Positions 38,312-57,122 of a stretch of DNA of 64,000 nt are shown here, one piece after another. The notes beneath the pieces were generated by a model. That model saw only the letters and a list, made by a program, of their open reading frames with translations, was not told the origin of the DNA and ran no database searches. Numbering within the stretch: the first letter of the stretch is position 1; each line of letters begins with the position of its first letter. The stretch is from Candidatus Woesebacteria bacterium (GTDB taxonomy: Bacteria > Patescibacteriota > Microgenomatia > UBA8517): the NCBI GenBank assembly GCA_016432365.1, contig CP066686.1, positions 128,355-192,354 of the forward strand. Reading direction: 5' to 3'. The position numbers were made by a program, and so were the translations under genes.

Positions 38312-38725
38312 ATGAAAAAGAAATTACTTATGGCTGCATTTGGGATGACGCTACTCCTGCAAACGACTATCTCCACCAAGGTTGTTTTTGCAGACGCTCT
38401 CGGAACCGCCAAATGCGGAGCCGATGAAATTGATACCGCAATCGGATGTCTAAATGTTCTGGGAAGCCAGGAACAATTTTTTGGAAGCCTTCTTAAGTGG
38501 GCCGTGGGGGTAGGTGGTGGAATTGCGTTCCTTTTGATTGTCTATGCCGGATTTATGGTAATGACATCAGCCGGTGACCCGGAGCGCCTTAAGGCAGGGC
38601 AGGAGCTTTTAACCAGCGCTATTTCAGGTTTGATTTTACTCATTTTTTCGATATTTATACTCAAATTCATAGGAGTTGATATACTAGGACTATGTACGTT
38701 TGGTTTTGGAACTTGCAGCCCTTAA
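38312..38725 (+). CDS. pilin-like two-TM protein, paralog 1 (VirB2/TrbC-like candidate)
   Basis: Signal peptide plus TM1-MTSAGDPERLKAGQELLTSAISGLILLIF-TM2; first gene of an 8-gene overlapping array. Confidence 0.55.
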   Translation: MKKKLLMAAFGMTLLLQTTISTKVVFADALGTAKCGADEIDTAIGCLNVLGSQEQFFGSLLKWAVGVGGGIAFLLIVYAGFMVMTSAGDPERLKAGQELLTSAISGLILLIFSIFILKFIGVDILGLCTFGFGTCSP

Positions 38726-38729
38726 ATAT

Positions 38730-39047
38730 ATGCCACTTAACCTTAATGGAGTACAAACTTTAGCCGGAATTCCACTTGAACAATTTGGAATTACGTCCAT
38801 GGGAACTTTAATTTCAAAAATCCTACCTTTTGTCTTTGGTGCTGCCGGAATTGCCCTCCTAATTTATCTTGTTATGGGCGGGTTCCAAATGATGACATCA
38901 CGCGGAGACCCCAAAGCCATGCAAGGGGCACAAGGCAAAATTACCAACGCTCTATTAGGTTTTGTCATTATCGCTGTCGCTTATTTATTTGTTAAGATAA
39001 TCGGACAGGTTTTTGGTATTACGGCATTTTCAGGTATCTTTATCTAA
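38730..39047 (+). CDS. pilin-like two-TM protein, paralog 2
   Basis: …MGGFQMMTSRGDPKAMQGAQGKITNALLGFVIIAVAY…. Confidence 0.55.
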   Translation: MPLNLNGVQTLAGIPLEQFGITSMGTLISKILPFVFGAAGIALLIYLVMGGFQMMTSRGDPKAMQGAQGKITNALLGFVIIAVAYLFVKIIGQVFGITAFSGIFI

Positions 39048-54163: not shown

Positions 54164-54167
54164 TTAA

Positions 54168-57122
54168 ATGCCGGCACCAAAATTTAATCCACAACCACCT
54201 ATAAGCGCGCCACAAGTAAAAGAACTTAAAGAAGCTTTAGAAATAATGCTTCCCGGCCCTTTAGGGTTGTCAGAAGCCCCATTCCGAAATAAATATAAGA
54301 GATGGGACAACCCCATGAAACTTTCAAAAGAAGTTTTGGAGTGGACCCAGCAAGATGATGTAAAAGATGCTTATTATGTTTTAACTCAGTGGCAAGAGAC
54401 TTATTCAAACCCTCCCGAGTACGAATCCCCAACAATGACGCCTGCACCTGAACAAATTGCGTCAAACATACCACAAAAAGGGATAAGGGAAGTACAAGAA
54501 GCGGAGCTAGAAAGAAGAAATGCGGATATTAAAGCTTCCATCGAAAAAGCTAAAGCCCAAACCCAAGCAGAAATTACTAGACGTCAGGAATATGCAAAGC
54601 AAAGACAAATTATTCGCGATCAGGTGACAAAAACACGTCTAGCCCAAACAGAACTTCGGGGTAGAAAAGTTTCAGTGAGAGTTGAAATTCCAAAAAACCC
54701 TGTTCTTTCTCAAAACGAACAAACAGCTTATACAAGACTTAGAGATCTGTCTCAAAAAAATCCAATACAAATAAAAGAGGAACTTTCGGCAGCTATTCAG
54801 GCAAAGATTCCTACATCTATTAAACAAAATTCTACTCCTGAAGAAGTAAAACTTTATGCAGATACGGTTGCTACACAAGCGGTTGCAAATCTTCGAATGG
54901 CTTCCCCACCACCCCCCGATGTGGAGACAGCTATATTGGTTACGGCTGCGACTGACAAAGATCTTTTACAAAAATATGTTAGCCAACCCGGAGCCCAAAA
55001 GGCATTGGAGCAGGGAACTAAAGAAATTCTTCGACCTGACACTCAAAAGGTCCTAGGTCAAGGTTTGAATGACTTGGCCAGAATCCGCATGACTGCATAT
55101 CAAGCCCCCGCAAACGCTCTTGACATGGTAGTAGGACCAAATGTAAGAAAGCTAATATTGGGACCAAGTCCTGCGGAAATTCGGGCAAGTTTTCAGTCTC
55201 AAGGAGCAACTCACGAACTCGATTTTGGCAAGTTAAATTCAAATTATCAATCCGCACTACAAAATCCAATGTTCTCTTATGCTCAAGGTGAAATTAAAGG
55301 AAAGGTTCTTGACTACGGCAAGCAACAACTTCTTTCAAGATTAAGTTCTTTCCCATCCGATAGCGCACTCGGGAAACTTGCAGCTTCTAATGAATTTCAG
55401 GGAGCCCTTACAATGCTTCAGCCTTACACATCTTTTGAATTTGTCGGCGCGGAGGGTTTGCCCGGAATTTTTGGTAAATTTGTAATGCAGTTTTCACCGG
55501 AATCTGCTCCACTTCTTTCCGGTTTTGGAAATATGCTTGGAATAGATTTCGGAATTGCACCGATTTCATCTGCCGTTACACCCATCGCAGCGGACGCACT
55601 AGCTGTAGGCGTTGGGGGCGAGGTTGCAGCAACCGGTGGGGGTCTTGTTGCTGGTGAAATAGCGGGTACTACGGCAGGTGTAGTGGCCGGAGAAGCAGCA
55701 GGTGTCGCTGTTGGAACAGCGGCGGGCACTGCAGCCGGAGCTACAGCTGGGGCGGTTGTAGGCACAGCTATTCCAATACCAGTCGTAGGAACTATCATTG
55801 GCGCTATTACCGGAGCTGTAGCTGCAGCTGCACCAAAAGTAATTAATTGGATAAAAGACAAATTTGGAAGCGCCGGAAAATATCTTATTGTTGGTCTGGG
55901 TGCAGCTCTCGGTGCTGCAATTGGTTTTGTAACTGGGGGCGGAGCTCTTCTTGGTGGTTTGGTCGGGGGTGGAATCGGATTTATTGGGGCTGGAGCTTTC
56001 ACGGGAGGTTTATCCGGCGTTGGCGCTTCACTCACTGGAGCAGCTTCAGCGGCAGCGGGTGCGTTTGGTACAATACTTAGCACTTTCTTAGCCGGTATCG
56101 GAGCACCAATTCTCGCCATTTTGATAGGATTCCCCCTTTTGGTTATTTTTATTATTATCATTATCAATTCGGGCGCATACATGGTTCCTCCCGGACTTGC
56201 TTTAATAAATAGCACCAATCCCTATCTGGATGTTCAAAAGGTTGCTTCCCCCAATGGACAACTCGCCACCCCCCAAACAATTACATATACAATTACTATT
56301 ACTGCTAAAAAAGACGATCTTACAGCGGTATCTTTTTCTTATGATTGCAACGCTATTAAAAAAGACGGGACAAAAATTAGTTGTAAAAGTTTGGAAACAA
56401 TACCCGCAGCACCGACTTCAATCCCCGTTGGTGCCCCATTCACTTTTACCTTTACTTCCGCCTATAATTCTTCCTATGCAGATTCGCTAGTGACAGACAC
56501 TTTTACAGTTAATGCAACTTCCCAGTCAGGCGGAAAAGTTTCCCAAACCGGATCCGCATCGATCTGTTTTGGTGATTGCCCTCTAAATTGTTTTGATTTT
56601 TCCGATCCATCTTGGAGCCAGCTACCAAATCTCCAATCACTACTCACTGAGGCAGCTGGCAAATTAGTTGGAGATTATCCCAATTTTGTCGCTAAGGTTT
56701 GTCCTGCGGGTGGTCCCATCGTTAAAATATGCTATACGACAAGTGATCCTGCACCTGGATCGGGTATCTTTGCAAGGTATGTTAACGATCCAGGAGGTTG
56801 CACTTTCAATTTTAACAAAGATGTGGAGCCATACGGCTCGGAGGGTGTTTTATTCCTTCTTACTCATGAAGTATCGCATCATATCCAGACTATAAATTCA
56901 GGTTATTTCAATCAATATATGAATGTCGTAAACCCGCCCGTCAACGAAGGTTATATTTGTACTAGAGGTTTAGACACTCCCGAAGAAAGTATGGCTGAGG
57001 CGGATGCGCTGTTTGTAGCAGCCCCTGTAATTGACAAAAATGCTGGTTGCTTAACTACTAGTTTCCAAAATCAATATCCTTTGCATTACGATTTTGTTAA
57101 AAATGTAATGTTCGCACCATGA
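54168..57122 (+). CDS. large membrane protein (984 aa): coiled-coil N-domain, Gly/Ala-rich multi-TM region, C-terminal domain with HExxH
   Basis: AVGVGGEVAATGGGLVAGEIAGTTAGVVAGEAAGVAVGTAAGTAAGATAGAVVG… followed by LLTHEVSHHIQ (HExxH). Confidence 0.5.
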   Translation: MPAPKFNPQPPISAPQVKELKEALEIMLPGPLGLSEAPFRNKYKRWDNPMKLSKEVLEWTQQDDVKDAYYVLTQWQETYSNPPEYESPTMTPAPEQIASNIPQKGIREVQEAELERRNADIKASIEKAKAQTQAEITRRQEYAKQRQIIRDQVTKTRLAQTELRGRKVSVRVEIPKNPVLSQNEQTAYTRLRDLSQKNPIQIKEELSAAIQAKIPTSIKQNSTPEEVKLYADTVATQAVANLRMASPPPPDVETAILVTAATDKDLLQKYVSQPGAQKALEQGTKEILRPDTQKVLGQGLNDLARIRMTAYQAPANALDMVVGPNVRKLILGPSPAEIRASFQSQGATHELDFGKLNSNYQSALQNPMFSYAQGEIKGKVLDYGKQQLLSRLSSFPSDSALGKLAASNEFQGALTMLQPYTSFEFVGAEGLPGIFGKFVMQFSPESAPLLSGFGNMLGIDFGIAPISSAVTPIAADALAVGVGGEVAATGGGLVAGEIAGTTAGVVAGEAAGVAVGTAAGTAAGATAGAVVGTAIPIPVVGTIIGAITGAVAAAAPKVINWIKDKFGSAGKYLIVGLGAALGAAIGFVTGGGALLGGLVGGGIGFIGAGAFTGGLSGVGASLTGAASAAAGAFGTILSTFLAGIGAPILAILIGFPLLVIFIIIIINSGAYMVPPGLALINSTNPYLDVQKVASPNGQLATPQTITYTITITAKKDDLTAVSFSYDCNAIKKDGTKISCKSLETIPAAPTSIPVGAPFTFTFTSAYNSSYADSLVTDTFTVNATSQSGGKVSQTGSASICFGDCPLNCFDFSDPSWSQLPNLQSLLTEAAGKLVGDYPNFVAKVCPAGGPIVKICYTTSDPAPGSGIFARYVNDPGGCTFNFNKDVEPYGSEGVLFLLTHEVSHHIQTINSGYFNQYMNVVNPPVNEGYICTRGLDTPEESMAEADALFVAAPVIDKNAGCLTTSFQNQYPLHYDFVKNVMFAP

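Follow-up and report, generated by a model that had tools for sequence, protein, structure and literature searches.

A probable chromosomal type IV secretion system of the Patescibacteria kind beside the replication origin of a Candidatus Woesebacteria genome

Closest described systems and the Woesebacteria locus

Type IV secretion systems (T4SSs) of Patescibacteria are the closest described relatives of the locus reported here, which lies in a 64,000-nucleotide stretch of a Candidatus Woesebacteria (Microgenomatia) chromosome (contig CP066686.1, positions 128,355 to 192,354; hereafter the window). Passages of Quiñonero-Coronel 2025 (Microb Genom, PMC12102498) describe for these systems the same architecture, with pilin arrays of 2 to 11 genes that are especially frequent in Microgenomatia, proximity to oriC, and no relaxase. 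In Southlakia epibionticum, the T4SS is essential for epibiotic growth (Wang 2023, Cell, PMC10633639; PMC12857230), and tube-like structures have been reported at the parasite-host interface (bioRxiv 10.64898/2026.06.21.733656). In the literature, the T4SSs of Patescibacteria are viewed as serving an epibiotic lifestyle (PMC12857230, PMC10633639). The region analyzed here is very probably a chromosomal T4SS typical of Patescibacteria, vertically inherited and situated beside dnaN, dnaA, and the replication origin.

As in the Patescibacteria systems described in the compared passages of Wang 2023 (SEML1_0006-0019) and Quiñonero-Coronel 2025, the locus combines an MPF-FATA-related VirB4, adjacent TrsD and PrgI genes, a divergent pilin array (eight genes here), and a wall hydrolase directly after virB4; no relaxase or coupling protein was detected nearby among the ORFs scanned, and it is chromosomal, next to dnaA and dnaN. 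No difference in kind was found, and the system is of an already known kind, because every kind-level feature was described between 2023 and 2025 (Quiñonero-Coronel 2025; Wang 2023; a 2025 review, PMC12857230). The differences concern single components. VirB6 is called “scarce” in Microgenomatia in the relevant passage of Quiñonero-Coronel 2025, whereas a VirB6/DotA-like protein is assigned by fold here, and the 781-amino-acid (aa) protein, the 920-aa protein, and the SpoIID/bPH/DUF5657 block do not appear in the passages of Wang 2023 and Quiñonero-Coronel 2025 that were compared.

The conjugative MPF-FATA T4SSs (Prg/Pcf of pCF10, Trs of pGO1, and the CD1110-type integrative and conjugative elements such as CTn2) share with this locus the VirB4 family, a PrgI/VirB3-like protein, a TrsD-like protein, a membrane-anchored multidomain wall hydrolase after VirB4 (PrgK/TraG), and the lack of an outer-membrane core. 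In contrast with those systems, the checks made on the window found no relaxase, VirD4/TcpA, recognizable VirB8-like protein, or PrgB-type adhesin, and the locus occupies a fixed chromosomal site instead of being mobile and carries an array of VirB2-like pilins, which is lacking in Gram-positive systems. The archaeal Ced and Helicobacter pylori ComB DNA-import systems likewise combine a minimal set of small pilins with two helices, a polytopic membrane protein, and an ATPase of the VirB4 type, and work with neither a relaxase nor a coupling protein, but the ATPase of this locus shows only generic VirB4-level similarity to CedB (52.7 bits against a cut-off of 700) and is not of the CedB-specific type, and the outer-membrane parts VirB7 to VirB10 of ComB are absent here. 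Unlike the DotA-IcmX and VirB6-VirB5 stalks of Legionella Dot/Icm (9ngy) and R388 (7o3v), with which there is no significant sequence similarity, the proteins of this locus belong to a monoderm envelope.

The map of open reading frames (ORFs) agrees with the gene list of a preliminary description of the window, which had named eight pilin-like genes, a 920-aa Cys-rich secreted protein, a four-helix-bundle gene, a VirB6-like polytopic protein, a protein of about 780 aa on the opposite strand, a PrgI/VirB3-like protein, a VirB4 N-domain protein, a VirB4 ATPase with a Walker motif, a 984-aa Gly/Ala-rich membrane protein with HExxH, and a SpoIID/LytB protein encoded divergently at the start of the locus. 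Its interpretation of the locus as a minimized Gram-positive or candidate phyla radiation (CPR)-style T4SS, conjugation-derived but put to another use and containing unrecognized components, is supported by the CD1110-type VirB4, the T4SS_pilin, PrgI, and TrsD matches, the VirB6/DotA-like fold, and the CPR host. The host belongs to the Patescibacteria/CPR by the annotation of its proteins, since NCBI HYV90_01100 and HYV90_01105, from a metagenome-assembled genome (MAG) named “Candidatus Woesebacteria bacterium” (1,078,985-bp contig), are identical to the 570-aa and 781-aa proteins.

Conserved core and chromosomal setting

The 617-aa VirB4 ATPase matches NCBIfam NF045971 (conju_CD1110) with 371.8 bits (cut-off, 325) over profile positions 182 to 735 of 752 and PF19044 (P-loop_TraG) with 2.6e-30, and gives further matches to TraC, VirB4_CagE, and TraG models. 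Its Walker A motif (ATSGAGKS, aa 276) is intact. The possibility that this protein is an FtsK/HerA-type ATPase lacking T4SS neighbors fails, because it fits the CD1110 family of conjugation-type VirB4 proteins and its neighbors carry the T4SS_pilin, PrgI, and TrsD families. The MPF-FATA-related conjugation VirB4 with TrsD and PrgI adjacent to its gene is the arrangement expected of the Patescibacteria clade of T4SSs.

The 228-aa protein encoded before VirB4 is recognized by the TrsD model and by the N-terminal portion of VirB4 models, and its orthologues carry PF26593 (TraC-like). It corresponds to a detached N-domain of VirB4, because the TrsD-like part and VirB4 form a single 834-aa ORF in the related locus L019 (1877-4381, with TrsD at 4-201 and VirB4 at 223-791), and an 814-aa ORF in L038 (390-2834) suggests the same fusion. 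The PrgI/VirB3-like protein scores 27.6 bits against PF12666 (gathering score, 27). It is about four times the size of the Pfam PrgI domain; residues 250 to 305 give a weak CarboxypepD_reg match, and the extension is kept in orthologues.

All eight ORFs of the pilin array (38312-41115) match PF18895 (T4SS_pilin), six of them above the gathering score of 26.6. Pilins 2 to 8 are 17 to 37% identical to pilin 1, and all eight present a layout of two hydrophobic helices and a conserved “GGD” loop, forming an array of divergent VirB2-like pilin genes as in the Patescibacteria clade.

A VirB4 scan with one genome per species retrieved at least 600 pattern matches, at least 572 of which encode relatives, and the best 80, with a VirB4 57 to 89% identical to that of the window, were used for the counts given here. 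Their record titles are mainly Microgenomates, Woesebacteria, or Patescibacteria, with many others being generic or evidently mislabelled MAG titles. Comparison of the window proteins with these 80 loci by tblastn, in which upstream genes are visible as far as the 10-kb flank, revealed the order pilin array, Cys-rich protein, VirB6-like protein, a variable slot, PrgI, TrsD, VirB4, large hydrolase, 192-aa protein, dnaN, and dnaA, the last two on the minus strand. PrgI is present in 71 of the 80 loci, directly upstream of TrsD in each, TrsD is present in 74, and dnaN/dnaA are present in 61; the order PrgI-TrsD-VirB4 holds in 71 to 74 loci. VirB4 is split in 74/80, with both halves 42 to 82% identical. 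The seven contigs with called genes (L081 to L087) show the same gene order. Overall, this order is kept in about 90 related loci. The VirB4 orthologue of one of them (L082, 1020-4580, minus strand; 1186 aa) carries an intein (Intein_splicing, LAGLIDADG_3) within its P-loop domain.

To the right, the locus is followed directly by dnaN, which begins 4 nt past its last gene, and then by dnaA, a DnaA box, rpmH, rnpA, yidD, yidC, and jag. The window as a whole is housekeeping chromosome, with dnaG, rpoD, an ATP-citrate-lyase-like trio, tRNAs, transfer-messenger RNA (tmRNA), and a ComFC-like gene. The preliminary description had called the composition of the locus atypical, and this did not hold: its GC content is 0.426 against 0.411 in the rest of the window, which lies inside the range of all 18.8-kb sub-windows (0.406 to 0.434). 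GC at third codon positions (GC3) of the locus genes resembles that of dnaA, dnaG, and rpoD, the tetranucleotide distance is raised only over the Cys-rich 920-aa gene, and the sole GC-poor gene of the locus is the four-helix-bundle gene (GC 0.333). Recent transfer or a foreign composition was therefore rejected, as the GC, GC3, and tetranucleotide profiles are native. The limits proposed earlier (38312-57122) were also too narrow. The conserved unit spans about 33475-57733, because a left-hand block and the 192-aa gene keep their place in related loci.

An Rfam scan retrieved no RNA family within the locus, and promoter and terminator scans were uninformative, with counts within about 1 to 2 standard deviations of the shuffled expectation. 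Three copies of an AT-rich element, about 50 nt long and containing TTCGAA palindromes, lie in the divergent start region of SpoIID and the pilins (38147-38264), in the dnaA-rpmH intergenic region (60644-60757), and before yidC (61492-61594). The dnaA-rpmH copy adjoins the DnaA box TTATCCACA at 60611-60619. The element could serve as a common regulatory site or represent a repeat distributed throughout the genome. Apart from these intergenic elements, no direct repeats of at least 40 nt were found in or near the locus.

Envelope proteins, variable slot, and neighboring genes

The 570-aa protein has the architecture of VirB6/DotA, with a polytopic layout and long hydrophobic helices within a T4SS cluster. 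Its family has over 1,153 members, and Pfam domains are lacking in all of the 120 that were listed. The protein itself does not match the TrbL/VirB6 (PF04610) or PrgH profiles, a search with the family profile against the PDB was empty, and 1 of 16 orthologues has a weak TrbL/VirB6 match (0.0015). An AlphaFold2 model built from 61 sequences (predicted local distance difference test score, 78.9) is closest to DotA/VirB6: Foldseek returned nothing significant, and the top probabilities, 0.6 to 0.69, all belong to R388 TrwI/VirB6 chains. DotA has itself been described as structurally similar to VirB6 (bioRxiv 10.1101/2025.06.23.660953). On the basis of its modelled fold and genomic context, rather than of sequence membership, the 570-aa protein is VirB6/DotA-like.

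In related loci, the gene for the 920-aa protein is invariably flanked by the pilin array on one side and the VirB6-like gene on the other. The window copy shows no family match, and direct and profile searches against the PDB were empty. However, one of seven orthologues matches PF18896 (SLT_3) with 1.4e-7, and “GVMYGEGAF” of the window copy aligns with “W..ES.ASNY” of the orthologues. Because of this match and this alignment, the protein is regarded as a Cys-rich extracytoplasmic protein with a lysozyme-like end, and is a candidate VirB1-like wall opener; a role as a VirB5/IcmX-like partner would be hypothetical. The four-helix-bundle gene that follows is found in only 3/80 related loci, and in other positions in L081 and L083, and is probably an accessory insertion, not a core part. 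Its assignment as the Avd of a diversity-generating retroelement was rejected, as there are no template or variable repeats and no reverse transcriptase among the ORFs scanned.

The orthologues of the 984-aa protein in the same position share its coiled-coil part, Gly/Ala-rich transmembrane block, and Ig-like module but end otherwise, with Peptidase_M23 in 5/13, CHAP in 1/13, and Amidase_5 in 1/13. A word-indexed homologue search with the full 984-aa sequence gave six matches, dominated by the Gly/Ala-rich region. The window copy and eight others carry a 175-aa C-terminal domain in which H-E-x-x-H, E-x-x-A-E, and YP.HY.F are invariant (nine sequences), as are H91, E92, H95, E131, and E135, so that the HExxH motif is accompanied by a downstream Glu as the putative third zinc ligand. 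This domain has no Pfam match, and a direct search of the 984-aa protein against the PDB was empty. Its profile gave weak PDB matches that extend across most of the domain, with values of 0.0088 for M3B, 0.077 for anthrax lethal factor, and 0.17 for Zmp1/Pro-Pro endopeptidase (PPEP), the PPEP alignment spanning positions 60 to 167 of 173. The likeness to the M34 gluzincins (lethal factor C-domain; Zmp1/PPEP-1) lies in the invariant HExxH and downstream E-x-x-A-E, spaced as in “HEFGH...EFFAE”. In contrast to these enzymes, to which the E values (0.077 to 0.2) are not significant, the domain is fused here to a T4SS-linked membrane protein, where it is interchangeable with M23 and CHAP wall hydrolases. 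By analogy, the 984-aa protein appears to be the functional counterpart of the PrgK/TraG-type T4SS wall hydrolases, with an exchangeable head.

In every related locus that reaches the variable slot, the VirB6-like gene is immediately followed by an ORF of 528 to 1214 aa on the opposite strand. In the window this is the 781-aa protein, for which no family was found in Pfam, NCBIfam, PADLOC, or PHROGs, no signal peptide was detected, and searches of the PDB with the 795-aa sequence and the 781-aa family profile returned nothing. It has a confident predicted model with no structural relative in the PDB, and an isolated Walker A-like match at its extreme C terminus. The family has 31 representatives among 1.84 billion proteins; members 33 to 39% identical occupy the same place and orientation in L082 to L084. 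An iterative profile search with hhalign for one slot family reached only L003, L002, and L007, the other positional counterparts scoring at control level. The slot protein is extremely divergent or replaced among genomes whose VirB4 is 60 to 89% identical. A possible reading of the 781-aa protein, though a rather doubtful one, is an undescribed lineage-specific T4SS partner, either an effector or host-specificity determinant under diversifying selection or a recruitment factor replacing the coupling protein.

The interval between the 781-aa gene and PrgI holds lineage-specific cargo, here the 231-aa, 110-aa, and PycTM-like 174-aa ORFs, and elsewhere a YcaO/nitroreductase pair or a four-helix-bundle gene. 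In L083 (4308-6926, minus strand), the YcaO and nitroreductase pair lies with a 196-aa ORF between the large opposite-strand protein and PrgI and has a look of azoline-type ribosomally synthesized peptide genes (RiPP-like); a four-helix-bundle/bAvd-like gene lies between PrgI and TrsD of the same locus. A strong terminator-like hairpin in the window (49326-49352, plus strand; 12 pairs followed by a T-run) stands in the 233-nt gap 3' of the 231-aa ORF and overlaps a promoter-like site (49293-49321). The reading of the slot as a defence island found no support, since PADLOC gives only the weak PycTM match and there is no cyclase, and a prophage or phage origin of the ORFs without a family was rejected for want of PHROGs matches.

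The left-hand block, consisting of a membrane protein of about 600 aa, a bPH_2-sized gene, and SpoIID, is present in all four loci that reach upstream of the pilins (L081 and L085 to L087). In these, an ORF of 597 to 628 aa has the position and orientation of the 664-aa gene, for which there is no Pfam match, and the SpoIID/LytB gene also keeps its position. The SpoIID/LytB protein of the window matches Pfam SpoIID (5.6e-12) and TIGR02669 (96.6 bits; cut-off, 83.3). The bPH_2 domain was scored in two of the four blocks (L081 and L087), which also have the DUF5657 gene (PF18901), to which the 73-aa ORF of the window is equivalent by position only. At the other end, the 192-aa gene was found in eight related loci and in L081, L085, and L087; 2/9 orthologues give weak BamE-like matches, and the idea that the protein is a VirB8 analogue found no support, as profile searches against the PDB and Pfam gave no VirB8 signal.

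Table 1. Genes of the conserved block and of its variable interval; positions refer to the window
Position	Strand	Product	Features
33475..35469	-	664-aa conserved neighbor	Cytoplasmic N-domain, one transmembrane segment (aa 304-331), repeat-rich C-terminal region of propeller-like look
35471..35692	-	73-aa protein	Two hydrophobic/transmembrane segments; positional equivalent of DUF5657 genes
35695..36351	-	218-aa membrane protein, bPH_2 domain	Pfam bPH_2 22.3 bits (gathering score, 22); same gene in L081, L087
36448..38268	-	606-aa SpoIID/LytB-domain cell-wall enzyme	N-terminal anchor, coiled coil; divergent from pilin array
38312..38725	+	Pilin 1, 137 aa	PF18895 33.7 bits; signal-peptide-like N terminus, two hydrophobic helices
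38700..39047	+	Pilin 2, 115 aa from TTG 38700 (ATG 38730 likelier start)	PF18895 38.7 bits
39048..39344	+	Pilin 3, 98 aa	PF18895 42.2 bits
39345..39695	+	Pilin 4, 116 aa, divergent	PF18895 15.9 bits, below gathering score; two-helix layout, conserved loop Asp
39692..40078	+	Pilin 5, 128 aa, divergent	PF18895 21.1 bits, below gathering score; aligned with others
40068..40445	+	Pilin 6, 125 aa	PF18895 32.1 bits
40454..40795	+	Pilin 7, 113 aa	PF18895 34.2 bits; 75-78% identical to counterparts in L002, L004, L005
40840..41115	+	Pilin 8, 91 aa	PF18895 29.2 bits
41128..43890	+	920-aa Cys-rich anchored or secreted protein	34 Cys, N-terminal hydrophobic anchor, lysozyme-like (SLT_3-type) C-terminal region
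43946..44302	+	118-aa four-helix-bundle protein (23S rRNA intervening sequence/Avd-like)	PF05635 (23S_rRNA_IVP) 70.9 bits; TIGR02436 84.4 bits
44389..46101	+	570-aa VirB6/DotA-like polytopic membrane protein	Signal peptide, ~150-aa outer region, long hydrophobic helices
46104..48449	-	781-aa soluble protein	No transmembrane segment; 781 aa from ATG used by NCBI, 795 aa from GTG (46104-48491)
48540..49235	+	231-aa ORF, window-specific cargo	No family match; no tblastn match in 80 related loci
49469..49801	+	110-aa ORF, window-specific cargo	Weak sub-threshold NCBIfam match only; none in related loci
49859..50383	-	174-aa two-transmembrane-segment protein, window-specific cargo	Pfam PycTM 24.0 bits (gathering score, 27.2); PADLOC PycTM 5.3e-4; none in related loci
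50516..51580	+	354-aa PrgI/VirB3-like protein	N-terminal two-helix hairpin, Pro/Gln-rich linker, C-terminal beta-sandwich-like domain
51583..52269	+	228-aa TrsD-like protein	NCBIfam TrsD 2.9e-5; VirB4_plasma positions 109-234
52310..54163	+	617-aa VirB4 ATPase, C-terminal motor part	Firmicutes CD1110/MPF-FATA type
54168..57122	+	984-aa membrane protein	~450-aa cytoplasmic coiled-coil N-part, Gly/Ala-rich transmembrane block, Ig-like module, C-terminal HExxH gluzincin domain (HExxH at aa 900)
57155..57733	+	192-aa anchored extracytoplasmic protein	N-terminal transmembrane segment; conserved last gene before dnaN

The remaining part of the window upstream of the block contains several other features. 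A ComFC-like competence gene with a double zinc ribbon and a phosphoribosyltransferase domain (31781-32467, minus strand) lies 6 kb upstream of the locus; comF near T4SS genes is reported for another class, ABY1, in a passage of PMC12102498. A 592-aa ORF (29971-31749, minus strand) contains six tandem units of about 156 nt at 30659-31557 that are 61 to 100% identical, gives weak fn3 and DUF5050 propeller matches, and probably encodes a repeat-built surface protein. The tmRNA (33027-33393, plus strand; Rfam, 140 bits) has the short predicted tag peptide GHKPVRDAV. ARAGORN predicts a cluster of five tRNA-Ser and a tRNA-Arg at 26451-27716, one with the anticodon ACT at 27523-27608; Rfam supports a tRNA at 27523-27607 but not at 27274-27359 or 27638-27716. 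Three adjacent genes (16603-19316, minus strand) resemble an ATP-citrate-lyase or citryl-CoA synthetase/lyase set, with a Citrate_synt C-terminal domain (223 aa), CoA_binding/Succ_CoA_lig (333 aa), and ATP-grasp_2 plus Citrate_bind (382 aa), an unusual-looking metabolism in a reduced Woesebacteria-type genome.

Proposed function, rival explanations, and significance

From parts recognized by homology or fold, and with a working modelled on the R388 and Dot/Icm structures and on Gram-positive systems, the PrgI/VirB3-like protein, the split VirB4, and the VirB6/DotA-like protein would form a platform in the cytoplasmic membrane. VirB4 would extract the VirB2-like pilins from the membrane and polymerize a pilus or tube on the VirB6 platform. 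The wall of the organism, and possibly that of its host, could be opened by the SpoIID/LytB enzyme, the lysozyme-like end of the 920-aa protein, and the head of the 984-aa hydrolase, the domains of which are recognizable and the targets presumed. The resulting machine would be non-conjugative and serve host-cell contact.

Several points weigh against the assignment to a Patescibacteria-type T4SS. The PrgI score is right at the threshold, and no VirB8-like protein was found among the families and structures searched, including with the 192-aa candidate. In favor of the assignment, the preliminary description had noted the lack of a relaxase or coupling protein in the window, and neither was detected here by Pfam scans of part of the ORFs and a Walker A scan: the Pfam scans, which covered 20 ORFs upstream and one downstream, returned no relaxase or integrase, and among ORFs of at least 150 aa only VirB4 and DnaA have a credible Walker A, leaving no VirD4/TcpA coupling protein, with a further isolated Walker A-like match in a 348-aa ORF (27675-28721). 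Against it, the remainder of the 1.08-Mb contig, beyond the window scanned, could still encode a coupling ATPase or a relaxase, and passages of Quiñonero-Coronel 2025 (PMC12102498) place many VirD4 homologues far from virB4. Both pilus formation and the substrate are inferred.

An origin as a recently acquired integrated conjugative element or plasmid remnant would account for a VirB4 family that occurs on Firmicutes conjugative elements, and for the low GC content of the four-helix-bundle gene. It is nevertheless very improbable, as the GC content of the locus falls within the window's own range, the ORFs scanned in the window include no integrase, relaxase, or coupling ATPase, flanking direct repeats are missing, and the locus stands beside dnaN/dnaA in most related loci and keeps its order in the seven annotated contigs. 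Given that the checks made on the window detected neither a coupling protein, a relaxase, or an integrase nor a foreign composition, and that the position beside oriC is fixed, the locus is not a conjugative element. Even less credible is a decaying, non-functional remnant: the splitting of VirB4 into two genes and the missing canonical parts (VirB8 and the type IV coupling protein) could be read in that way, but all ORFs are intact, the split is kept and both halves conserved across the related loci, the Walker A motif is preserved, and the homologous system of S. epibionticum is essential (PMC12857230, PMC10633639).

The chromosomal, vertically inherited T4SS favored here leaves the direction of traffic to be considered, for which import of host nucleic acids or other macromolecules and protein export appear about equally plausible, each a little short of an even chance, while a role in adhesion only is rather unlikely. 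A dedicated import machine, in which the pilins, VirB6-like protein, and VirB4 pull in host DNA or RNA and supply nucleotides that the organism cannot make, is a plausible but tentative proposal. Its minimal part list, without a coupling protein or relaxase found, equals the composition of Ced and ComB as reportedly described by van Wolferen 2016 and Hofreuter 2001 (the latter cited in PMC11665869). The locus also gives weak matches to the CedB and CedD models, but the former falls well short of its cut-off and is attributable to homology among VirB4 proteins in general, and the latter reaches 28 bits against 600. Nucleotide acquisition has been raised as a candidate role, with ComEC dispensable in S. 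epibionticum (PMC11665869, PMC12857230), and host RNA is described in a preprint as being fed upon with T4SS-like tubes (bioRxiv 10.64898/2026.06.21.733656). Yet the locus has no nuclease, DNA-binding, or ComEC-like partner, the ComFC-like gene upstream is ordinary competence, and nothing in the locus indicates direction. Somewhat less favored is a protein-export system in which the hypervariable 781-aa soluble protein is a translocated effector or a host-specificity factor diversifying in an arms race with the host. This protein is soluble, has no signal peptide, is strictly linked to the locus, has a confident model of no known fold, and is divergent or replaced while VirB4 is conserved, and Wang 2023 (PMC10633639) favors protein export or an alternative capacity. 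On the other hand, no coupling protein was detected that could recruit cytoplasmic substrates, the convergent orientation could merely mark a separate transcription unit, and a cytoplasmic partner with a structural or regulatory role would likewise agree with the conserved place beside VirB6.

Patescibacteria, which live attached to other microbes, account for a large part of bacterial diversity, and no T4SS before theirs had been shown to be essential for the bacterium that carries it. The Woesebacteria locus is a clean and complete Microgenomatia example of this system and not a new kind of system. What it adds is a fold-level VirB6/DotA assignment in Microgenomatia, a modular hydrolase head, a wider conserved block, and an orphan protein in a hypervariable slot. 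This 781-aa slot protein is a concrete candidate for the substrate or specificity factor of the system and the one item that could become interesting.

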